From a virus (Duplodnaviria > Heunggongvirae > Uroviricota > Caudoviricetes): 17,849 nucleotides of DNA. The notes under the pieces were generated by a model. It was given only the letters and a program-made list of their open reading frames with translations, ran no database searches and was not told where the DNA came from. Positions 2,826 through 17,849 of this stretch are shown here, piece by piece (position 1 is the stretch's first letter; every line of letters starts with the position of its first letter). Both the position numbers and the translations under genes were made by a program. The stretch is taken from the IMG/VR virus record IMGVR_UViG_2541047705_000005, one strand, 5' to 3'.

Positions 2826-2953
2826 CTGGTTGAGTATACAGTAGTAGACTTTGAGCGACGAAAGAAAAGGCTGTGTCTAGGGTCGCTCCCGAAAATCCGT
2901 ACACCTCGACGGACTGGTACAGCCACTACAGTAGAGGACGCTGAGGTGTGCGT

Positions 2954-3751
2954 ATGATTGATATTCATGCCGAATTAAACGAATACAAAAAAGATTTTAT
3001 TTCTTTACGTGAATTTCTTGAGGTCGTGCTTAAGGTCGCTGGTGATGATTATGATGTTTCAGATGTCATAACTTGGATACTCAGGAGAATAAGCGGAGAA
3101 CATATCCGCCTGTACACAGTAAATGAATTTAAGCTGTTGGAATCTTTTTGTAACCCGTATCGGGATGAATTTGATAATGATGTTCTTTATAGAAATCTGA
3201 ATGCGGTTCGGAAACGTGGTTGTTTACCTGGTGAGAGGGATGAAAATGGTTTTCTGGTGTCCGGTTATTGGGAAGATCCCGAATTTGAGAACATTGGATT
3301 TATAAGGGGTGAAATTTTCGCAATTTTTCCCGATGTCCTTGACGCGTTAACGAAGCTGGAAGGCGCTAACTCTTCTGAAAATGACGAGGCACAAGGACGC
3401 GATATTGAAAAGAAAGAGTTGCGTACAGAGGATGATTTATTATCCCAAATCGCAATGCTGGAAAAAGAAAACGCAGAGTTAAGGGCAAGGATAGAGCAGT
3501 TAGAGCAAGAGCGCCCGATACACTTATATAAATACTGGGATAAAGACCCATTAGCTAAGGCTATTGAGATTAGAAACAGAGAGTGGGCCAATTACGATCC
3601 AGAAAATGATTTTGCCACCAGGGGAAATCAAGAAGCGATAACCAGGGAGCTTAAGCAGTGGGGGGCAAGTAATGCACTTGCAACGCTCATAGAGAGGACT
3701 GCCTGCCCTATTAACCGAGACAACAGTCAAAAGAACGCAAAGCCGGATTAA
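2954..3751 (+). CDS. Hypothetical protein with central coiled-coil (LLSQIAMLEKENAELRARIEQLEQE); function unknown
   Basis: ORF-track ORF 2948..3751; I prefer the ATG at 2954, which is 5 nt downstream of GAGGTG. No recognisable catalytic motif. Confidence 0.6.
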   Translation: MIDIHAELNEYKKDFISLREFLEVVLKVAGDDYDVSDVITWILRRISGEHIRLYTVNEFKLLESFCNPYRDEFDNDVLYRNLNAVRKRGCLPGERDENGFLVSGYWEDPEFENIGFIRGEIFAIFPDVLDALTKLEGANSSENDEAQGRDIEKKELRTEDDLLSQIAMLEKENAELRARIEQLEQERPIHLYKYWDKDPLAKAIEIRNREWANYDPENDFATRGNQEAITRELKQWGASNALATLIERTACPINRDNSQKNAKPD

Positions 3752-3765
3752 CGCACCATACCGCA

Positions 3766-3910
3766 TACCCTGAGGGTGATTTACTGTTACCCTGAGGGTA
3801 TTTTTTTATCTTCCCCGTCAATTTTACCATCACCCTTAGGGTAGATTTCCTCCCGATTACCATCACCCTTAGGGTAGATTTCCTTCCGGTAACCATTAGG
3901 CCTGAGGGTA
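3766..3910. promoter_or_regulatory. Array of five near-palindromic ACCCT-N-AGGGT sites (3766-3777, 3789-3799, 3832-3842, 3865-3875, 3900-3909), including a 27-bp direct repeat TACCATCACCCTTAGGGTAGATTTCCT x2, upstream of alpA
   Basis: Read directly from sequence; the dyad symmetry suggests binding sites for a dimeric regulator in the alpA promoter region. Confidence 0.45.
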
Positions 3911-3978
3911 TGAAAATATTCGTTATTTCTGTGCCATGATTACCTCGTCAAATTGAGTAGACGTTATGAGGTAAATAT

Positions 3979-4176
3979 ATGTCAAATACGCTTATTCGTT
4001 TAACAGAAGTTCAGCGTAGAACTGGATATAGCAAGGCATGGATTTATCGCCTTATGGGGCAAGGTAAATTTCCTGCATCAGTTAAAATTGGCTCGCGAGC
4101 TATTGCTTTCGTTGAGAGTGAAATTGACGAGTGGATTAATCAGCGTATTGCGGAATCACGCGGAACAGCTACCTGA
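3979..4176 (+). CDS. alpA: AlpA/Vis-family prophage transcriptional regulator (small HTH protein)
   Basis: 65-aa protein MSNTLIRLTEVQRRTGYSKAWIYRLMGQGKFPASVKIGSRAIAFVESEIDEWI, the characteristic AlpA pattern; GAGGT RBS; position after int is typical for P4-like elements and Gram-negative PICIs. Confidence 0.8.
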   Translation: MSNTLIRLTEVQRRTGYSKAWIYRLMGQGKFPASVKIGSRAIAFVESEIDEWINQRIAESRGTAT

Positions 4177-4253: not shown

Positions 4254-5054
4254 ATGAAATTTCCAAAAACGCCCGTACAGGGGCGGGGCTTCGTTCGGCC
4301 TGAAAACCAGAATCTGCAAAATTTCGGCGAAATTATCCCGATTATTTCCGGCGTTATTGGCGGGAGTGAAACCACTATTGTTAGCGCCAGAGCGTTACAT
4401 AAGGCGTTAGGTGTAGGGCGCGTTTTCCGTTCGTGGATCAAGGGGCGCATTGAAGAATATGGGTTCACGGAAGGCGTGGATTATGAGGTTGTTGAATATT
4501 TGAGCCGACCCGATCCGGTGAGCGCAAAATCTCGCCAGCAAACCGCTCTTGAGTACATCATCACAGTGAACATGGCGAAAGAACTGGCGATGGTCGAACG
4601 TACCGAACAGGGCCGCGCCGTTCGCCAGTACTTTATCAAATGCGAGGAGGAGCTACACAAGGTTGCGCCTGTTCGTTCCGCAGCGTTACGCCGGGAACTG
4701 AAAGCCCGTATCACAGTTGCCAGCTACTTTAAGCCAATGTGTGCCGCGCTGGAGGCGTACCGGGCTGAACTGGGTAAAAACACACTCCAGCACCACTACA
4801 CCACGGAAGCGAACATGCTGGCGCGTATCGTGCTGGGTGGCATGACTGCAAAACAGTGGGCACTGGCGAACGGCATTACAGGCGAACCACGCGACCACAT
4901 GAGCACGTTGCAGCTTGAGCACCTTTCTTACCTTGAGCAGAGCAATATCACGCTGATTGAGTTAGGCCAGGACTACCACCAGCGGAAGGCTGAATTAATT
5001 CGTCTTTCGCAGCGTTGGTTAGCCCGTCGCATGGAGGAAAACAGCCATGTGTAA
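4254..5054 (+). CDS. Phage antirepressor-like protein (AntA/AntB-type N-terminal domain)
   Basis: 266-aa ORF; N-terminal SARALHKALGVGRVFRSWIKGRIEEYGFTEGVDYEV and later ITVNMAKELAMVERTEQGRAVRQYFIKCEEEL resemble antirepressor motifs as I recall them; AGGAG RBS 6 nt upstream. Family assignment is from memory, not a search. Confidence 0.55.
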   Translation: MKFPKTPVQGRGFVRPENQNLQNFGEIIPIISGVIGGSETTIVSARALHKALGVGRVFRSWIKGRIEEYGFTEGVDYEVVEYLSRPDPVSAKSRQQTALEYIITVNMAKELAMVERTEQGRAVRQYFIKCEEELHKVAPVRSAALRRELKARITVASYFKPMCAALEAYRAELGKNTLQHHYTTEANMLARIVLGGMTAKQWALANGITGEPRDHMSTLQLEHLSYLEQSNITLIELGQDYHQRKAELIRLSQRWLARRMEENSHV

Positions 5055-5771
5055 CGCTCTGACCGTTACAAAAAGAGAAAGCGCCCCGTTGCCGGAGCGC
5101 CTTTGTGAACGAATAGCCTACTGCGCCATATTGCTTACTGTCTACGAGGCAGATTATAGCGTTGTGGTCGCACAGAGTGAAGGCGCTGATCACCGTTACT
5201 ACAGCACGCCAGAAATGCAGAATATTTTGCTGCAAAATGTCGTTGGTCACACTGTCCGGAAAGCAAAAAATTTTGCTGGTGGCGCGACTGATGCGATTTT
5301 GTCAGGTCGCCAGGTGCTGATCAATCTGATGTCTGATTTCGTTCTGGATAAAACAAAGGCGACCGCAGAGGGCCGCCAGTGGGAAAGCTACATACTTGAA
5401 CGCATCGCCAACAATGCCAGATTTGCGGCTGGTGGGCAATGTGTCAGCTTTGCACCAATGACTCTATGTTTAACTGAGGGTCATTATGGTGAATATGCTG
5501 GCTTGCTGGTGGGCTATTCCTGCTCTTTAACATTGCCATGCCGCGATGTTTTCCAGGTATGCGACCCCATTTTTGTGCACCTGTACTCTTTAAGGAATTT
5601 CTCAAGGACAAACGCACAGGGCGCGAATCTGTCTGACTCATGCTCGTACGCTATCTTTCTGCGCTGTCTTTTCCGTGCCGGTGATGGTGTATTGGTTGAT
5701 TCTTTGTTGGTCATGGCGCTGCCCTGTAAAATAATGCACCGTAGTTCCTCACACCACGGCACCTATAGTGG

Positions 5772-6044
5772 TTATTCCTGCTCTTTAGCTTTGCGCCGCT
5801 GGAGTTCTTCACGCGCGACGGTGACGAGTTGCCCGATTTCCTCGGCAGCTTTGACTCCGATTTTTTCCACCTGCGCTAGGGCATCGAGCGAAGAAACCAG
5901 GGGATTTTCTCCGCTTCCTTCTGCCTGGCGGCGGGCGATTTCACCGCGAACGGCTGTAATCACGAAAGCGGCTATTGTTTCCCCTTCCGTTTTCGAATTT
6001 TCCATTTCCTCGATTACATCATGGGGGAAGCGGATATTTTTCAT
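5772..6044 (-). CDS. Putative ribbon-helix-helix (CopG/Arc-like) DNA-binding protein, divergent from the replication operon
   Basis: Minus-strand ORF (track 5772..6077); internal start gives MKNIRFPHDVIEEMENSKTEGETIAAFVITAVRGEIARRQ, which fits the RHH N-terminal beta-strand/helix pattern. No clear SD for either start, so the start is uncertain. Confidence 0.45.
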   Translation of the reverse strand: MKNIRFPHDVIEEMENSKTEGETIAAFVITAVRGEIARRQAEGSGENPLVSSLDALAQVEKIGVKAAEEIGQLVTVAREELQRRKAKEQE

Positions 6045-6168
6045 TTGCGATCTGCTGTTGATGTTTCCTGTTGCCATCAGAATGTCCGGTTATTTTGAGG
6101 TGTGTACACATTACACCAAAAGGTGTGTTGATAAAACACTTGACACTGTAGCACACTTAAATTTAATT

Positions 6169-6201
6169 TGTATATACACCAATTGTTGTGGTGTATATAC
6201 A
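6169..6201. promoter_or_regulatory. Perfect 12-bp inverted repeat TGTATATACACC-N9-GGTGTATATACA (candidate operator) in the divergent intergenic region; a TTGACA hexamer lies at 6140-6145
   Basis: Read directly; lies between the minus-strand RHH ORF and the plus-strand operon starting at 6268. Confidence 0.45.
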
Positions 6202-6267
6202 GCAACGCCCCGCAGTGGTGGCACACATGCAGGGCGTCTAACCAAACCGTTAAACGAGGTAACGATT

Positions 6268-6633
6268 ATGGCTGGAACACAGCATACCCAAACTCACCCT
6301 AAATTTATATACACCTTCCTGGCGGTGCACCGTGATTGCATTGCTGACGGTAAAAACACTGTACACGTAGCCGCCGATACGCTGGTTGATGCCTGCGAGA
6401 TGCTCAATGACATGGGCTATATCTCGGCAACATGGAAAGGGCGCGAAGAAAACACGCTGTTTATTCAGAAATGCGAAAACAATTTTATCTGGCGTTTTAT
6501 CGCCCTGAGTACGGCACAACCGCGCGTGATTCACATCGAGGCCACCAGCGAACAGGAAGCACGCCAGCAATCTCCTGATGGCTGCGTGATGGTATTCGCT
6601 GCCCGTATTCGCCAGGAGGTGGAGCATGTGTAA
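6268..6633 (+). CDS. Hypothetical protein (first gene of replication-module operon)
   Basis: ATG at 6268 preceded by GAGGT; it is the 3' part of the stop-free track ORF 5047..6633; the stop overlaps the next start (CATGTGTAA junction). Confidence 0.6.
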   Translation: MAGTQHTQTHPKFIYTFLAVHRDCIADGKNTVHVAADTLVDACEMLNDMGYISATWKGREENTLFIQKCENNFIWRFIALSTAQPRVIHIEATSEQEARQQSPDGCVMVFAARIRQEVEHV

Positions 6634-7631: not shown

Positions 7632-7922
7632 ATGAAAAAGAAAAATTCTGGCTTTACTGCCAGCGGCCTCTCTCGGCCTGAAATCCGCCCCGGTGATATT
7701 TTCCGGGACACCAGACGCGGGGGACGGGTGGTTATTCGTCACGTTACGCCAGGCAATATCACCTACCGCCGTGAGGCTTACGAATATGACTGCGTAATGC
7801 CGCGCCGTCAGTTTGAGCGTGATTTTATTCTGGTGGAAAACAAACAACAGGCAGTGGCGAGACGTGCAGCCACGAATATTAAAAAAATCCGGGCAATGTT
7901 GGTTGCGGGAGGTAAGAAGTGA
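7632..7922 (+). CDS. Hypothetical small basic protein
   Basis: 96-aa ORF; its stop overlaps the GTG start of the primase-like gene. Confidence 0.5.
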   Translation: MKKKNSGFTASGLSRPEIRPGDIFRDTRRGGRVVIRHVTPGNITYRREAYEYDCVMPRRQFERDFILVENKQQAVARRAATNIKKIRAMLVAGGKK

Positions 7923-9724
7923 AAAACGCACCGAATTTAAAATATCAGCCGAAGGATAAATTCACCGAGGTAATCATTTTTGCCGGGACGGATGCTTACG
8001 CCCATGCTCAACACTGGATTGAAAGCGAAGGACGAAAACACGGCGATAACGTGCCTCCTGTTTACCTGGGGCCAAAGCAACTGGCAGACCTGGCGAATAT
8101 CCGCATTGTCGACGATGAACGTCGCTTTGCGCGTGTCTATCTCGCGGGGGAGATAGAGCCAATCCAGATCAATGCTATTGCTGAAAAGCTGGCGCTGGCT
8201 GGTGTACAGGACGCGAAATTATACAAAGGTATCACCGACCGGGAGCCGGAAAACTGGCGCGACTACCTGCAACGGATCCGCGAACAGGCAGAGAGTGGGG
8301 AAGTTTCAGCGATGAAATTAGCCACAAAAAATATTGACCTATCCAGGCCAGCACTAAATCAGATGGGAGCCAGCCAGAGAGGGGAAGTGTTACTTGAATA
8401 TTATGGAAGAGCACTGGCTATAAATGATGATTCTGATGTAGTTCACCATTACAACGGAATTGTCTGGGTGCCTGTATCTGATAAGGAACTCCAGCGGTCT
8501 ATGGCGAAGATTTTTATTGATGCTGGAATCAGTTATTCGCAAAACGCCATTAAATTTGCCGTAGACACAATGAAATTGAGCCTGCCTGTTATGGGCGGGG
8601 CAGACAGGAATCTTATTGGATTCAGTAACGGGGTATTTGATACCCGGACGGGAAATTTTCGGGAGCATAACAAAAATGACTGGTTGTTAAATGCCAGTGA
8701 ATTACCGTTCAGCCCACCAGCAGAGGGGGAAACGCTGGCAACACATGCGCCGAATTTCTGGAAGTGGCTGCGTCGTTCGGTGGCAGATAATGAGCGTAAA
8801 GCTGATCGCGTACTGGCGGCATTATTCATGGTACTGGCGAACCGGTACGACTGGCAGTTATTCCTTGAGGTAACAGGCCCAGGCGGAAGCGGTAAAAGTG
8901 TGATGGCTGAGATTTGTACCATGCTGGCGGGTAAGGCCAACACAGTATCGGCAAGCATGAAGGCTCTGGAAGACGCAAGGGAACGCGCGTTAGTAGTTGG
9001 CTTTTCGCTGATTATCATGCCGGATATGACTCGCTACGCTGGCGATGGTGCAGGAATTAAGGCAATTACTGGCGGCGACAAGGTGGCAATTGATCCGAAA
9101 CATAAAGCCCCCTACTCCACACGTATTCCGGCAGTAGTGCTTGCGGTAAACAATAACGCCATGTCATTCAGTGACCGAAGCGGGGGGATCTCGCGTCGTA
9201 GGGTGATATTTAATTTCTCTGAGGTCGTACCGGAGAACGAACGCGATCCCATGCTGGCGGAAAAGATAGAAGGCGAACTGGCGGTAGTGATTCGCCATTT
9301 GCTAACACGATTTACCGACCAGGACGAAGCTAAAAGACTACTTTATGAGCAGCAAAAATCAGAAGAAGCGCTGTTGATAAAGCGCGAAGGTGATTCACTG
9401 GTGGACTTTTGCGGCTATCTGATGTCGTTGGTTAAATGTGAAGGAATGATGGTGGGCAATGCGGAAATAGTGCCATTTAGCCCGAGGCGATACCTGTATC
9501 ATGCTTATTTAGCCTATATGTCAGCGCATGGCCTGGGAAAACCAGTATCACTGACACGCTTTGGTACTGATATGCCAGGAGCTATGGCGGAATACGGAAA
9601 GGAGTATAAGCGGGCTAAATGCACTAAAGGCCCGGATAAAGGGCGAGTGATAACAAATGTTCTGTTAGATGATGATGCTGATGGCTGGTTGCCAGCAGCT
9701 ACAGGGATTAACGACAGAACATAA
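7919..9724 (+). CDS. Primase/helicase-like replication initiator (P4-alpha / D5-type NTPase family)
   Basis: 601-aa ORF, GTG start after GGGAGGT; Walker A P-loop LEVTGPGGSGKSVMAEI in the C-terminal half; last gene of a coupled operon and followed immediately by an iteron array, as expected for satellite pri/rep genes. Confidence 0.75.
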   Translation: MKNAPNLKYQPKDKFTEVIIFAGTDAYAHAQHWIESEGRKHGDNVPPVYLGPKQLADLANIRIVDDERRFARVYLAGEIEPIQINAIAEKLALAGVQDAKLYKGITDREPENWRDYLQRIREQAESGEVSAMKLATKNIDLSRPALNQMGASQRGEVLLEYYGRALAINDDSDVVHHYNGIVWVPVSDKELQRSMAKIFIDAGISYSQNAIKFAVDTMKLSLPVMGGADRNLIGFSNGVFDTRTGNFREHNKNDWLLNASELPFSPPAEGETLATHAPNFWKWLRRSVADNERKADRVLAALFMVLANRYDWQLFLEVTGPGGSGKSVMAEICTMLAGKANTVSASMKALEDARERALVVGFSLIIMPDMTRYAGDGAGIKAITGGDKVAIDPKHKAPYSTRIPAVVLAVNNNAMSFSDRSGGISRRRVIFNFSEVVPENERDPMLAEKIEGELAVVIRHLLTRFTDQDEAKRLLYEQQKSEEALLIKREGDSLVDFCGYLMSLVKCEGMMVGNAEIVPFSPRRYLYHAYLAYMSAHGLGKPVSLTRFGTDMPGAMAEYGKEYKRAKCTKGPDKGRVITNVLLDDDADGWLPAATGINDRT

Positions 9725-9751
9725 TACGAAATTTATAAGCTGAAACGTAAA

Positions 9752-10090
9752 GGTAGACGGTTGGTAGACAGATTCACTTAACCCTCTACCAACCATCTAC
9801 CAATTAATATTTTGAATTATAAAGATATTTTCAATGTGGTAGAGAGGTAGACAGTTATTTCTATATTCCTACACCACGGGGGGTATATAAAAAACAGATA
9901 GTTAAGGGGGCATTTTTTAAATTTCTCTTTTAACTGTCTACACTGTCTACCATTTAGTAAAAATCATTAATTATCAATGTATTAATGCGGTAGACCGTTG
10001 GTAGACAGTTTGCAGATTGTTTTTTTGTTATGTGTTAATAACATTAAATAAATCAATCAATTATATCGGTAGACAGTTGGTAGACAGTTG
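9752..10090. repeat. Iteron array: six copies of a ~20-bp unit GGTAGAC-N3-4-GGTAGACAG in both orientations (9752-9773, 9784-9801 inv, 9838-9856, 9933-9951 inv, 9989-10010, 10068-10090) separated by AT-rich spacers; putative replication origin
   Basis: Read directly; iterons plus AT-rich spacers immediately downstream of the primase/helicase-like gene match origin architecture of P4-like satellites and PICIs. Confidence 0.5.
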
Positions 10091-10095
10091 TAACG

Positions 10096-13330: not shown

Positions 13331-13400
13331 CTCCATACCCACAACGCATTCCCTTTCCGCATGAAATTATTTTTTATCGTATATGCATGAGGTGAGCTAC

Positions 13401-13928
13401 ATGTTGATGAGTAAAGCCGAATACGCCAAATACAAAGGCGTAAGCCGCCAGACAGTTTACGACTGGCTCGAGAAAGGCGAAGTGGTCATGTCCGGTAAAA
13501 AAATTGATGTGGAAGCGACAGAGCAGCGGAACAGCCCACCAGCACAGGGGAAAGACACCATTTCTGAAATGTGGCCAGAAAGAACGCTGGAAATGACATG
13601 GGGCGAGTTCTGGAAAGCAGTTAAGGCCAGAGACGGTAAAATTCCTGCGCCAGTAACGGACGAGGGCATACAGCAGCATGTGCTGTATGCAGCCGGGGAA
13701 TTAGGCTGGGAAGTGCACTTTCTTGATGATGGTGCTATCTGTCTTGAGGATGATGAAGGGCAGCATTACTTTGAAAAATACAATTTGCGAGGTAATGCCA
13801 GGCTGGCAATTCGTATGCTGCGTTGCGAACTCTGCTATGTTGCCAGCGATTGTCCCGATGAACAGGACACATGGAGTGAGGCAGGACTAAACGCCTTGGC
13901 TGAATGGGAAAAATCAGGCCATCAATGA
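13401..13928 (+). CDS. HTH DNA-binding protein with Nu1/TerS-like N-terminal pattern; candidate packaging-redirection (Rpp-like) or regulatory protein
   Basis: Track ORF 13383..13928; I prefer the ATG at 13401, 7 nt after GAGGTGA. N-terminal MLMSKAEYAKYKGVSRQTVYDWLEKGEV resembles the lambda Nu1 wHTH pattern (KKQLADIFGASIRTIQNWQEQG) in spacing of conserved positions; followed by a dense repeat array. Confidence 0.55.
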   Translation: MLMSKAEYAKYKGVSRQTVYDWLEKGEVVMSGKKIDVEATEQRNSPPAQGKDTISEMWPERTLEMTWGEFWKAVKARDGKIPAPVTDEGIQQHVLYAAGELGWEVHFLDDGAICLEDDEGQHYFEKYNLRGNARLAIRMLRCELCYVASDCPDEQDTWSEAGLNALAEWEKSGHQ

Positions 13929-13933
13929 CCTCA

Positions 13934-14190
13934 AAAAGTGTCAAGTTGAGCAGTTTGCCAGGTTGACACTTTACACTCTGAACGCGAAAAAGTGTCAACC
14001 TCGCTGGATGCCTCGCCATTACTGGCCTTGTACCATATTCACCACGTCAAAAAACCGAAAAAATAGCGAAAAGTGTCAAGTTGCCATGCTTAGAAATGCT
14101 AAGGTTTGATAAGGTTTTTCGCGAAAAAGTGTCAAGTGTGTCAACCTGCGGTATTAAGATTTATTAAGGTCTTAAGCCGGAAAGTGTCAA
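13934..14190. repeat. Array of seven GTGTCAA core repeats (six direct, one inverted; consensus CGAAAAAGTGTCAAC) plus TAAGATTT-N-TAAGGT repeats; candidate packaging (cos/pac-proximal) or regulator binding region
   Basis: Core copies at 13938-13944, 13963-13969 (inverted), 13992-13998, 14073-14079, 14129-14135, 14138-14144, 14184-14190; read directly. Confidence 0.5.
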
Positions 14191-14221
14191 CCAGCCCCTA
14201 AGATTTCCTAAGGTGTAAATC

Positions 14222-14750: not shown

Positions 14751-15977
14751 ATGATTGCAGGCGCGAAAAGAGGGAGAAACGAACGCAAGGGGCTTCACTC
14801 TTGGCATCCATACTATGCGGGCTATTCAGAGTCATTTGTGGCTTCTGTTTTGCAGGCTGAAGGAGTTAAGTCGTCCGCTACCGTTCTTGATCCTTGGATG
14901 GGAAGCGGTACCACTGGTATAGTTTGTCAAAAGCAAACCATAAAGTGTATTGGAGCAGATATTAATCCTGTAATGAGCTATTTTGCTGCAGCCAAAAGTA
15001 GGGATAATATTTCAGCGCTGGATTATACCGGAGAGCAACTCCTGGAAAGGATACTGCTTTGCTTTAGAAAAAAAACAAAAGATATAACTGAGTCATCGAA
15101 GGGCTATCCACTTATTGAACAGTTACAAAAGTTTTATAAATGTATCTGTGATCAGTTTATGGATAAAGGACAAAATGATATCGTAAATCCTTTAAAAGCA
15201 TTTTATTGCAGTGTTTTATTTTATACTGTTCGCAATGTCCTTGATGTTAGGTCAACTTCAAATCCTACATGGATTTCTAAAAAAGTAGACTTTAATAATA
15301 AATTTGATATTTGTTTTGAATATAATAAAAATTTTAAAATTATGCGTGAGCAGTTAAGTGAATATTATGGCAGCGCTAATGGGGGGGCATGTTACTCGAT
15401 TTTAAACGTGGATAGTAAAAAATTAAATATTAAAAGTAACACAATTGATCTTGTTATTACATCGCCACCGTATTTAACACGAATAGACTATGCCGTTTCT
15501 ACTCGTCTTGAGTTGGAAATAATTTTAGGGAGTGAGGGATATAAGTCTCTTAGAAAGGAAATGATGGGCACGACGACTGTGCCTAAAGTTGCGGATGAAA
15601 TTAATAAAAAATGGGGGCCATTGTGTATGGATGTTTTGTCATCGGTAACATCGCATACATCAAGAGCATCTGGAAGTTATTACCTTAAAAATAAAATTAG
15701 ATATTTTTCTGATGCGTATGAGTCATTAATGGAAATCTTTAGAGTTTTAAAGGTAGGTTGCTCTGGTTATTTTGTAATACAAAATTCATATTATAAGGAA
15801 ATAGAGATTCCGCTTTATGATATTTATTGTGAAATGGCGCTTTCTATTGGGTTTTCAGAAGCGAAATGTGTGAGAGAAGATCAAGTTAAAGCAATATTTG
15901 GACAAATAAATACCAAGTCAAAAAATTATATTAAAGATAAAGTTTATTTTGAAAAAATCATAAGGATAACAAAATGA
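14751..15977 (+). CDS. DNA methyltransferase (amino-methyltransferase: N4-cytosine or N6-adenine), motif I before motif IV
   Basis: 408 aa; SAM-binding motif I VLDPWMGSGTTG (14889-14918) and catalytic motif IV SPPY in DLVITSPPYLTRIDYA (15462-15473); AT-rich codon usage; stop overlaps next start (ATGA). Confidence 0.8.
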   Translation: MIAGAKRGRNERKGLHSWHPYYAGYSESFVASVLQAEGVKSSATVLDPWMGSGTTGIVCQKQTIKCIGADINPVMSYFAAAKSRDNISALDYTGEQLLERILLCFRKKTKDITESSKGYPLIEQLQKFYKCICDQFMDKGQNDIVNPLKAFYCSVLFYTVRNVLDVRSTSNPTWISKKVDFNNKFDICFEYNKNFKIMREQLSEYYGSANGGACYSILNVDSKKLNIKSNTIDLVITSPPYLTRIDYAVSTRLELEIILGSEGYKSLRKEMMGTTTVPKVADEINKKWGPLCMDVLSSVTSHTSRASGSYYLKNKIRYFSDAYESLMEIFRVLKVGCSGYFVIQNSYYKEIEIPLYDIYCEMALSIGFSEAKCVREDQVKAIFGQINTKSKNYIKDKVYFEKIIRITK

Positions 15978-17086
15978 ATGACGTAACTAAATTGCTATCT
16001 CAGATAGATGAAAAAAGAGATGAGGTAGTAACTGATTCTTATACCATATCATGGCGTGAAGTAATTAATCTATATAAAGAAAATGAGATAACCATTTCTC
16101 CAGACTACCAAAGGCTTTTTCGTTGGGATAACGCAAGACAAAGCCAATTTATCGAGTCATTACTTTTAAATATACCTACGCCAACACTTTTTTTCTACAT
16201 TGATAATAATGGTAAGCAGGAGGTTATCGATGGATTGCAACGTGTGAGTACTATAATTAGATTTTTTTCAGAGGATATTTTTAATAAGGAAGAAATAGAT
16301 AATGCAAAGAAACAAAACTCTGTAAATGATGTCCGTAATCCAACTGTTCTTGATGATGTGCCTATAATTACAGAATTAAATGGATGGACTGCAAAAGGAT
16401 TGCCGGACAAAGTTAGCCGAACTATAAAAAATGCGCGAGTAAATGTTGTTATTTTGGAGCAAGAAACAAAACCTGAAACTAAATATAATGTTTTTAAACG
16501 ACTGAATAGGTCTGGTGTTCGTTTGAGTGACCAGGAAATACGTAATTGCATGGCTAGATTAGCAGGGAATGAATTTGCAGATCGCTTACGTAAGATGGCC
16601 GAAATTGATGGTATTGTTCAAGCTCTTGGAATAAATGAAGATGGCCAAAAATCTCAAGGTGTTGAGGAAGCTTTGCTACGAGTTATGGCATCTTTGACTT
16701 ATGCGGATAAATTTAGCCATAGTGTAACTGACTTTTTGGATGAATTTATGTTCTACGCGGCAGAACATAATGTTATTGATATTAATTTTGAATTAAAAAT
16801 AAAAAGAACTTTTGATTTGATAAATATTGCTGGTTTATCTGGTAAAGCATTTAAATTTAGAAAGGATGGTGCTCCAAGTGGCCCGTTTAGTACTAATTTA
16901 TTAGATGTTGTTGCTGTTGGTATTTTTAGTAATGTAGATAATTTAACACCTGCTGAGGTGGCGAAAAGATTTGATTATTTAATGGATGGTGAGATCAAAG
17001 AATTAAGAGCTTGTACTGGTTCTGGATCTAATACTAAAGCCAAATTAGAGAAAAGAATCGCTCTTGGGAAGAAGGTGTTTGGATAA
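15974..17086 (+). CDS. DUF262 (ParB/Srx-like NTPase domain) protein, stand-alone (no DUF1524/HNH domain evident)
   Basis: 370 aa; N-terminal signature PDYQRLFRW...IESLLLNIPTPTLFF...VIDGLQRVSTII (DGQQR-type motif, 16229-16243); AAGGA RBS; translationally coupled to the methyltransferase. Confidence 0.8.
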   Translation: MNDVTKLLSQIDEKRDEVVTDSYTISWREVINLYKENEITISPDYQRLFRWDNARQSQFIESLLLNIPTPTLFFYIDNNGKQEVIDGLQRVSTIIRFFSEDIFNKEEIDNAKKQNSVNDVRNPTVLDDVPIITELNGWTAKGLPDKVSRTIKNARVNVVILEQETKPETKYNVFKRLNRSGVRLSDQEIRNCMARLAGNEFADRLRKMAEIDGIVQALGINEDGQKSQGVEEALLRVMASLTYADKFSHSVTDFLDEFMFYAAEHNVIDINFELKIKRTFDLINIAGLSGKAFKFRKDGAPSGPFSTNLLDVVAVGIFSNVDNLTPAEVAKRFDYLMDGEIKELRACTGSGSNTKAKLEKRIALGKKVFG

Positions 17087-17087
17087 A

Positions 17088-17849
17088 ATGAGAATATCAG
17101 ATTTCGATGATTTCAAGGTGATGTTGGAAAAGACGAAAAATGAAAGTCTTGGATTCCTTGAGAGCATAAAGTCTATTAATGAGTTTATGTCGAGATCAGG
17201 TGATAAAGACAAGGAGGATATGTTTAGAATAATATCGGTCCCAATGATTTATTCTTCTTGGGAGGGTTTTTTTACTGAAACAATGTCAGTTTGCTTAAAT
17301 ACATTGAAACTCTCAGATAGAGAAGCATTTAGATACTCTGCAGAAATTCGAGCACTTTGGTTGCAACGAGAACCATTTTATAGCAAGTATGTAGATATGA
17401 TAAAAAATATTTATGATGCTGACTCACACCGAAGCATTGTCCATAATGGCGCCCAAATAAAAAAGAAAGTTACGAAGGGGGCGTTTAAACTAACAAGTGA
17501 GGTAATTCAACACATTGACAGGTTTAATAAATCCACATTATCAGATTGCGATGTTTCTGAATTAGTTATGACATTTTCCAATGTGAATGAAATGGTTGTC
17601 AAGGTGAATTTCGATGCTATAGGTTTGGATTATTCATTACTTGATTTATCGCAACTAGGTGAGGTTGTTGGCCTTAGAAATTCTTTGGGACATGGGGAGT
17701 TTAAAAGTAGTGTTAACCCTAGGAAATTTAATTCAATAATTGTGTATGTGGAAAATCTGATCATCGATTTGAATCAATGTGCTATAACGTGGTTGGATAA
17801 ATTAGAAGATGAAATAACTAAGCCTGAAGATAATGAGACTATTCAGTGA
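17088..17849 (+). CDS. Predicted all-alpha protein with C-terminal Rx4H motif (LRNSLGHGEF); putative HEPN-domain RNase effector
   Basis: Track ORF 17064..17849 uses a TTG; I prefer the ATG at 17088, 10 nt after GAAGGTG. R-N-S-L-G-H at 17676-17693 fits the HEPN Rx4-6H motif; stop TGA is the last codon of the window. The HEPN call rests on motif and composition only. Confidence 0.5.
   Translation: MRISDFDDFKVMLEKTKNESLGFLESIKSINEFMSRSGDKDKEDMFRIISVPMIYSSWEGFFTETMSVCLNTLKLSDREAFRYSAEIRALWLQREPFYSKYVDMIKNIYDADSHRSIVHNGAQIKKKVTKGAFKLTSEVIQHIDRFNKSTLSDCDVSELVMTFSNVNEMVVKVNFDAIGLDYSLLDLSQLGEVVGLRNSLGHGEFKSSVNPRKFNSIIVYVENLIIDLNQCAITWLDKLEDEITKPEDNETIQ

Follow-up and report, generated by a model that had tools for sequence, protein, structure and literature searches.

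A putative iteron-type replication origin 3′ of the initiator gene in a PICI-type satellite of Escherichia coli

The closest described systems to the locus considered here are EcCICFT073, which serves as the reference phage-inducible chromosomal island (PICI) of Gram-negative bacteria, the SaPIs, P4 and EcCIMP1. In EcCICFT073 the origin has been defined directly 3′ of pri-rep, where sets of iterons flank AT-rich DNA (PMC6092414). Cloned rep-ori gave Rep-dependent plasmid maintenance that mutations in rep or ori eliminated or lowered, deletion of the ori lowering it without eliminating it (PMC6092414); the deletion primer used by those authors includes GGTAGACAGGGTAGACAG. The Rep/ori modules of the SaPIs (SaPIbov1, SaPI1) consist of a gene for a self-loading helicase-initiator followed by an origin with at least two iteron sets around AT-rich DNA (PMC6092414), and the specificity of their iterons is matched to the initiator (summarised in PMC6092414). 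The alpha protein of P4 (777 aa) begins with an N-terminal DnaG-type primase domain, and its origin-binding domain (OBD) is a winged helix located C-terminal to the SF3 helicase (PMC2777425); in Rfx, a structural relative, DNA is contacted by the recognition helix and by the wing, a beta-hairpin that comes after it (PMC2777425). The repeats annotated in P4 as 'ori type 1 repeats' are GGTGAACAG, and its crr lies directly 3′ of alpha. Finally, EcCIMP1, the PICI of E. coli MP1, occupies tRNA-Thr next to proA with the att core TCCTATTATC, and its induction and packaging by a helper phage have been demonstrated at the level of the island (PMC11773190), in a paper that contains no description of its origin. 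The HE-PICI paper has nothing about iterons, and literature searches for GGTAGAC and TGTTCACC as plain motifs yielded nothing beyond unrelated lists of primers.

Set beside these systems, the DNA analysed here (17,849 nucleotides, hereafter the window) contains an array of iterons that, on comparative sequence evidence, is very probably the vegetative replication origin of a PICI-type satellite at tRNA-Thr, recognised by the C-terminal winged-helix domain of a 601-aa initiator. The window is E. coli DNA from a chromosomal island that has integrated at tRNA-Thr, next to proA, and the right end of the island falls outside it. The tRNA gene occupies 1369–1441 (Rfam) with TCCTATTATC inside it at 1428–1437, and the gene order is tRNA-Thr, int, alpA-type HTH, antirepressor, Icd-like, DUF4222, pri, array, FinO, PerC; an int-alpA RNA family (Rfam, 45.5 bits) lies at 2870–2937, in the interval from the integrase to the gene that follows it. 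RefSeq annotates an identical copy in strain 4314 with an integrase, a hypothetical protein, an HTH regulator, an antirepressor, an Icd-like protein, small ORFs, DUF4222, a 'DNA primase family protein', ProQ/FinO, PerC, further genes and, at the end, a methyltransferase/DUF262/HEPN cluster. The island thus has the hallmarks of a PICI: an integrase at one end, an alpA-type regulator, rightward genes and, in the RefSeq annotation of the identical island, no structural or lysis set. It resembles EcCIMP1 in integration site, att core and kinds of genes (an integrase of the same length, an AlpA-type HTH, an antirepressor, PerC), the genes being matched by kind; the replication gene of EcCIMP1 encodes a TOPRIM/DUF927 protein, whereas that of the window is of the D5/P4 type.

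Two other parts of the island deserve mention in their own right. The segment at 14751–17849 encodes a DNA methyltransferase, a DUF262 protein and a HEPN-like nuclease and looks like an anti-phage cargo cluster; a sibling island in E. coli O104:H4 has an AAA ATPase and DUF4435 at this position. At 5047–6633 on the + strand there is an uninterrupted frame of 528 codons, present in the longer record L001 as well, that overlaps two minus-strand RefSeq genes (YlcI/YnfO family and hypothetical) and matches known families (Icd-like; PHROG 'transcriptional repressor') over its last ~55 residues only. An open frame of this length is unlikely to arise by chance.

The initiator gene, annotated 'DNA primase family protein', runs from 7919 to 9724 on the + strand and was assigned from its ORF and from Pfam and PHROG matches. 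Pfam places D5_N at residues 156–285, DUF5906 (the SF3 helicase core) at 319–427 and Pox_D5 at 490–567; the match to phrog_864 'DNA primase' reaches 7.6e-157, and that to TIGR01613 falls below its cutoff. A first reading made from the sequence alone had called the protein primase/helicase-like, and half of that name stands: the SF3 core is present, but Pfam and NCBIfam searches detected no primase or TOPRIM domain, so 'primase' is here a family name only. PHROG matches to P4-like primases begin at residue 122 or later. Residues 491–592 (9389–9694, +) match chain residues 2–99 of PDB 1KA8, the P4 alpha OBD, with E=6.4e-19 (phmmer), and are taken as a homologous winged-helix origin-binding domain; the conserved helix alpha2, YLYHAY, is described in PMC2777425. 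Within this domain, an alignment of 26 binding domains delimits residues 561–583 (KEYKRAKCTKGPDKGRVITNVLL; 9599–9667, +) as the presumed beta2-wing-beta3 segment. The wing is placed here from homology to 1KA8 and from the structural account in PMC2777425, the AF2 models being poor in this region: the full-length model, built from a shallow alignment, has a pLDDT of 41.7, and the binding domain modelled alone has 42. The full-length model is confident only at the N-terminal module (pLDDT 63–92 over residues 15–125). This module, residues 1–128 (7919–8302, +), was delimited by sibling comparison and AF2 and is predicted to be a small four-stranded alpha/beta domain; a Foldseek search against the PDB gave no significant fold match for it, with DnaG at E about 0.09.

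The array fills the gap from 9724, where the 601-aa gene stops, to the ProQ/FinO start (10096 by ORF, 10108 in RefSeq). Twelve half-sites of the GGTAGAC(AG) type, each 9 bp long, form six pairs between 9752 and 10087: pair 1 at 9752–9771 (+, GGTAGACGGTTGGTAGACAG), pair 2, inverted, at 9782–9801 (−, GGTAGATGGTTGGTAGAGGG), pair 3 at 9838–9854 (+, GGTAGAGAGGTAGACAG), pair 4, inverted, at 9934–9951 (−, GGTAGACAGTGTAGACAG), pair 5 at 9989–10008 (+, GGTAGACCGTTGGTAGACAG) and pair 6 at 10068–10087 (+, GGTAGACAGTTGGTAGACAG). Pairs 1 and 2 together make a 17-nt inverted repeat that is 94% complementary. Start-to-start spacing of the half-sites is 11 bp (N4) in four pairs, pair 1 included, 8 bp in pair 3 and 9 bp in pair 4. 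Between the pairs lie an AT-rich spacer at 9802–9837 (11% GC), a central 79-bp spacer at 9855–9933 (30% GC, with two G-runs), a second AT-rich spacer at 9952–9988 (16% GC) and the longest AT-rich one, 59 bp at 10009–10067 (19% GC); the first and the last of these are candidate unwinding elements. The sequence-only reading had described six copies of a GGTAGAC-N3-4 unit, four direct and two inverted, interleaved with AT-rich DNA. The copies, their orientations and the AT-rich spacers are as it described, down to the AT-rich string that it quoted, while the unit itself needs correction: N4 applies to four of the pairs, pairs 3 and 4 have the shorter spacings given above, and 5 of the 12 half-sites deviate from GGTAGAC (GGTAGAG twice, GGTAGAT, TGTAGAC, plus variation in the trailing AG).

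The clustering of this motif is far beyond expectation. GGTAGAC occurs nine times in the window, eight of them inside the array, against 0.87 expected, and none of 200 shuffles reaches nine; GTAGAYAG occurs eight times (seven inside the array) against 0.44 expected, and the 20-mer pair sequence four times against 0.00. A scan of the array for DnaA boxes yielded nothing better than a one-mismatch hit, without enrichment. The first iteron, at 9752, stands directly 3′ of the initiator stop, where PICI origins lie, and the six pairs with their low-GC spacers reproduce the arrangement of iteron sets flanking AT-rich DNA described for such origins (PMC6092414). The likeness to EcCICFT073 is specific. 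In that island the 289-bp region 3′ of pri contains the GGTAGA repeat 11 times, reading GGTAGA(C/T)AG. The island shares with the window the surrounding gene order, the location of the origin immediately 3′ of the initiator, the core GGTAGA(C/T)AG and iterons that are grouped with alternating orientations and separated by AT-rich DNA; its Pri and the window initiator are 44% identical over their full length.

It is informative to examine the array in light of two sibling islands, L032 and L033 (E. coli O104:H4 and strain A17), which are largely the same as the window on either side of it. By blastn, the window is 94–97% identical to these islands up to 8302 and again from 10092 or 10094 onward. 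On the left, DUF4222 is 94–95% identical and the first 129 residues of pri 95–96%; on the right, FinO is 95–97%, PerC 93–99% and the 181-aa gene 90–96% identical, and in the O104:H4 island a 380-aa gene is 99% identical. The N-terminal module (window 7919–8302; L032 607–993; L033 1331–1717) is likewise 95–96% identical over its first 128–129 residues, and the bodies that follow this common module are unrelated: D5/SF3 with a P4-type binding domain in the window, DUF927 and the RepA family in the siblings. Each body has its own repeats. The O104:H4 island has a DUF927-type initiator body and ~14 GGGATAT or GGGATAC repeats in alternating groups before FinO, and strain A17 has a RepA-family helicase body and then at least eight AAAGTGAGG repeats; GGTAGAC is absent from both sibling islands. 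What differs is therefore a putative exchangeable replication cassette at 8303–10091 (+), defined by blastn against L032 and L033 and made up of the helicase body, the origin-binding domain and the whole array. Identity resumes 4–6 bp past the last iteron, with FinO and PerC constant, and this places the array with the exchanged initiator unit; by these alignments it is the right-hand end of a 1.8-kb unit that is swapped whole with the helicase and DNA-binding part. The aligned DNA provides clear evidence that satellites trade initiator-plus-origin cassettes at fixed breakpoints.

Other E. coli loci present further arrangements of the same region. In L028 (E. coli ETEC1732; 880–1960) two origins stand in tandem: first a pri of the CFT073 type and, after it, the GGTAGA(C/T) array that belongs to it (about 896–1190), then a RepA-helicase fragment fused to the final ~30 codons of a window-type pri, and last a window-type array. 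In L030 (E. coli FDAARGOS_1300; 2830–4100) an IS3-family element sits inside the array after the first ~255 bp, the last two iteron pairs are gone, and ProQ/FinO and PerC are unannotated in that copy.

We also looked beyond E. coli. A scan of one genome per species gave 23 loci with relatives of the initiator at 50–98% protein identity. A clear repeat array of 5–13 half-sites stands just 3′ of the gene in 21 of these, as it does in EcCICFT073; the exceptions are L014, with two clear sites only, and L026, with no clear array. With the window and EcCICFT073 added to the 23 relatives, the 400-bp segment 3′ of the gene ranks first within its locus for copies of a single 7-mer in 22 of 25 loci. The half-sites generalise to [G/A]G[T/C]-NN-A-[C/T/G]-A-[G/C] and fall into the classes GGTAGACAG, (A/G)GTAGACAC, GGTAGATAG, GGTGAAYAC (the P4 type), GGTGGAGAG, GGTGGACAG and GGCGGACAG, assigned by AG, GA or GG at positions 4–5, T or C at position 3 and C, T or G at position 7. 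The array of E. ruysiae (L004) is the same as that of the window, and P4-type GGTGAAC is present in L005–L011, L021 and L022.

The sequence-only reading had proposed aligning related islands to see whether iteron sequence co-varies with the specificity domain of the initiator, and in such an alignment it does. Among the 26 aligned binding domains, iteron class tracks the segment between EYGKEY and SNVxL, that is, window residues 561–583: domains whose cores are at least 90% identical have wings that are 92% identical if the iteron class is shared and 51% identical if it is not. Thus L025 and L021/L022 are 92–94% identical in the core, differ in the wing and have GGTGGAGAG and GGTGAAYAC, respectively, and L017 and L016/L018, with cores 95–99% identical, differ in the wing and in T versus C at iteron position 3. 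Since the wing codons and the iterons are neighbours, 85–490 bp apart, linkage could account for part of this co-variation; that all copies in an array change together requires a common reader. It is also worth considering that L022 and L025 are related islands in one metagenome-assembled genome (Enterobacterales SMAGNO137), with near-identical binding-domain cores and different wings and iteron classes, which is the pattern that avoidance of origin cross-talk would produce.

The original proposal, that the 601-aa protein serves this origin, is supported by the comparisons: a binding domain of the 1KA8 type, an iteron two bases removed from the P4 type I iteron, the core repeat of EcCICFT073 in the same position, clear arrays in 21 of 23 relatives, iteron variants that track the wing, and the co-exchange of array and initiator body. 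We would go further only tentatively. It is quite possible, if still short of probable, that the wing sets positions 3–5 and 7 of the iteron (GGT-NN-A-Y-AG), that the 1.8-kb cassette of helicase, OBD and origin is traded behind a constant 128-residue module acting as an adaptor (to the DUF4222 protein, to host priming or to a helper factor), and that this spares co-resident satellites origin cross-talk.

A second repeat array in the island was considered alongside the first. At 13929–14195 there are seven copies of AAAGTGTCAA(C/G), one of them inverted relative to the other six, together with three copies of TAAGnTTTnnTAAGGT; on the other strand the motif reads GGTTGACAC, which fits the iteron family consensus. 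This array lies directly 3′ of the gene for the 181-aa HTH protein (13383–13928) and 5′ of a 59-aa ORF; the HTH protein is 'MerR family' in RefSeq and has a weak PHROG match to small terminase. We rejected it as a crr-like partner of the initiator: it is unchanged in siblings that carry other initiators and hence goes with the 181-aa gene. It may be the recognition site of the 181-aa protein, possibly a packaging site.

These observations bear on the alternative that survives best, although it too is improbable, namely that the main array is a crr-like cis enhancer bound by the initiator while synthesis starts elsewhere, as in P4, where ori and crr are both needed. It occupies the place, directly 3′ of the initiator gene, that crr has in P4, and the structure of its pairs resembles that of crr. 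Yet the 22.6-kb record L001, which reaches 4.75 kb past the right end of the window, holds a single GGTAGAC cluster, making such a role unlikely; the array at 13929–14195 is no candidate for the second site, for the reason just given; and in EcCICFT073 cloned pri with the adjacent ori is enough (PMC6092414).

That the island is decaying and the array a relic without activity is slightly less probable again, and very unlikely in absolute terms. Among close E. coli variants (91–100% identity) the iterons are not better conserved than the spacers, with 14 of 107 and 43 of 265 columns variable, respectively (p=0.53), and some genomes have the region interrupted by an IS3 element or rearranged. On the other hand, the 601-aa ORF is intact and all six pairs are there, and the full-length region occurs in 98 of 5426 complete E. 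coli genomes, in every case on the chromosome, and in E. ruysiae as well.

There is little chance, and less than for a relic, that the repeats are operators of a ProQ/FinO-PerC promoter, bound by PerC, FinO or AlpA instead of the initiator. The last pair ends 20 bp ahead of the RefSeq FinO start codon and weak promoter-like hexamers overlap pairs 3 and 4, but three promoter-like hits compare with 2.1 in shuffles, and homologues of FinO and PerC are missing from most of the relatives that bear an array. Binding by a FinO- or PerC-like protein was also the outcome that the sequence-only reading had set against its own proposal, and the siblings speak against it: with FinO and PerC 93–99% identical, the repeats in the gap are entirely different, and an array that swaps with the initiator while FinO and PerC stay argues against either as the binder. 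The array may nonetheless have a secondary transcriptional role, as a roadblock or in autoregulation by the initiator; a scan of the + strand after pri found no terminator, which makes read-through from the upstream operon likely. Hardly credible at all is a structured small RNA that partners the FinO-domain RNA chaperone encoded next to it: the RNAs on which FinO-family proteins act are often encoded close by and the region folds far better than shuffles (z = −6.8), but the opposite strand is nearly as stable (z = −5.7), a symmetry explained by the inverted iterons in the DNA that led us to reject the fold as evidence for an RNA, no Rfam family reaches its gathering score in the region, the + strand lacks a terminator, and arrays occur without FinO as FinO does with other arrays.

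Returning to the array as the origin, we infer a course of events in which binding, the site of melting, helicase loading and priming are all read from the arrangement of the parts. Once the rightward operon is switched on, the initiator would bind the twelve half-sites; these are spaced 8–11 bp within their pairs, so that most would lie on one face of the helix, and the pairs alternate in orientation. The SF3 helicase part could then assemble on the bound array and open one adjacent AT-rich spacer, the helicase would load itself, and host enzymes would copy the excised circle.

An annotated origin for a widespread E. coli satellite helps to delimit its replicon and to build satellite-based vectors, and to predict which islands share or compete for an initiator. 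Of greater interest than the origin itself are the cassette exchange at fixed breakpoints and a naturally occurring set of iteron variants that go with wing variants of a DNA-binding domain whose structure is solved; this set makes origin specificity directly testable.

How, then, does this locus sit among the known systems? With the SaPIs, which are PICIs of Gram-positive bacteria, it shares the same logic, but host range and iteron sequences are different. It is nearer to EcCICFT073, from which it nonetheless differs in several respects. The binding domains are only ~38% identical, and that of EcCICFT073 has a short wing whereas the wing of the window carries a 5-residue insertion. The iterons of EcCICFT073 are laid out as (- -)(+)(- - -)(+ +)(-)(+ +) over ~230 bp, and those of the window as (+ +)(- -)(+ +)(- -)(+ +)(+ +) over 336 bp. 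Downstream of the origin EcCICFT073 has genes for a hypothetical protein, SSB and PerC, the window for FinO and PerC, and the attachment sites are ycfD-phoQ and tRNA-Thr, respectively. The origin of EcCICFT073 (L002, 7155–7230) also has, on the minus strand, GTGGATAA, which read by eye comes close to a DnaA box, and, between iteron groups, a hairpin with an 8-bp stem, TTACTGGC-ATGGTG-GCCAGTAA; neither has a counterpart in the window array.

P4 alpha, like the window initiator, has an SF3 helicase followed by a C-terminal winged-helix origin-binding domain, and P4 too has pairs spaced 9–11 bp in an iteron cluster directly 3′ of the gene. The P4 iteron GGTGAACAG and the window's GGTAGACAG share 7 of 9 bases and differ only at positions 4–5; correspondingly, the P4 type I octamer TGTTCACC (GGTGAACA) is absent from the window, which has GGTAGACA instead, differing at positions 4–5. 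Pair 4 with the two minus-strand bases that follow it, GGTAGACAGTGTAGACAGTT, matches the P4 crr pair GGTGAACAGTGTGAACAGTT at 16 of 20 bases, the sole difference being AG in the window for GA in P4 in each half-site. However, P4 has two clusters, ori and crr, ~4.5 kb apart, whereas the window island has one, and the position 3′ of the gene is that of the P4 crr, not the place where P4 replication starts. In place of the primase domain of P4 alpha the window initiator has an unrelated 128-residue N-terminal module. No sid, delta or psu is annotated in the RefSeq record of the island, and a search for a lambda-type cos gave no match. Because the iteron sequence, the bipartite layout and the primase domain all differ, the array does not, strictly speaking, belong to the P4 ori/crr systems. 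Nor is it a novel type of element: it is an expected feature, built like the tested origins of EcCICFT073 and P4. On these comparisons, the array is a putative Gram-negative PICI origin of the P4-alpha binding-domain type, with a layout of its own and an initiator wing marked by a 5-residue insertion.
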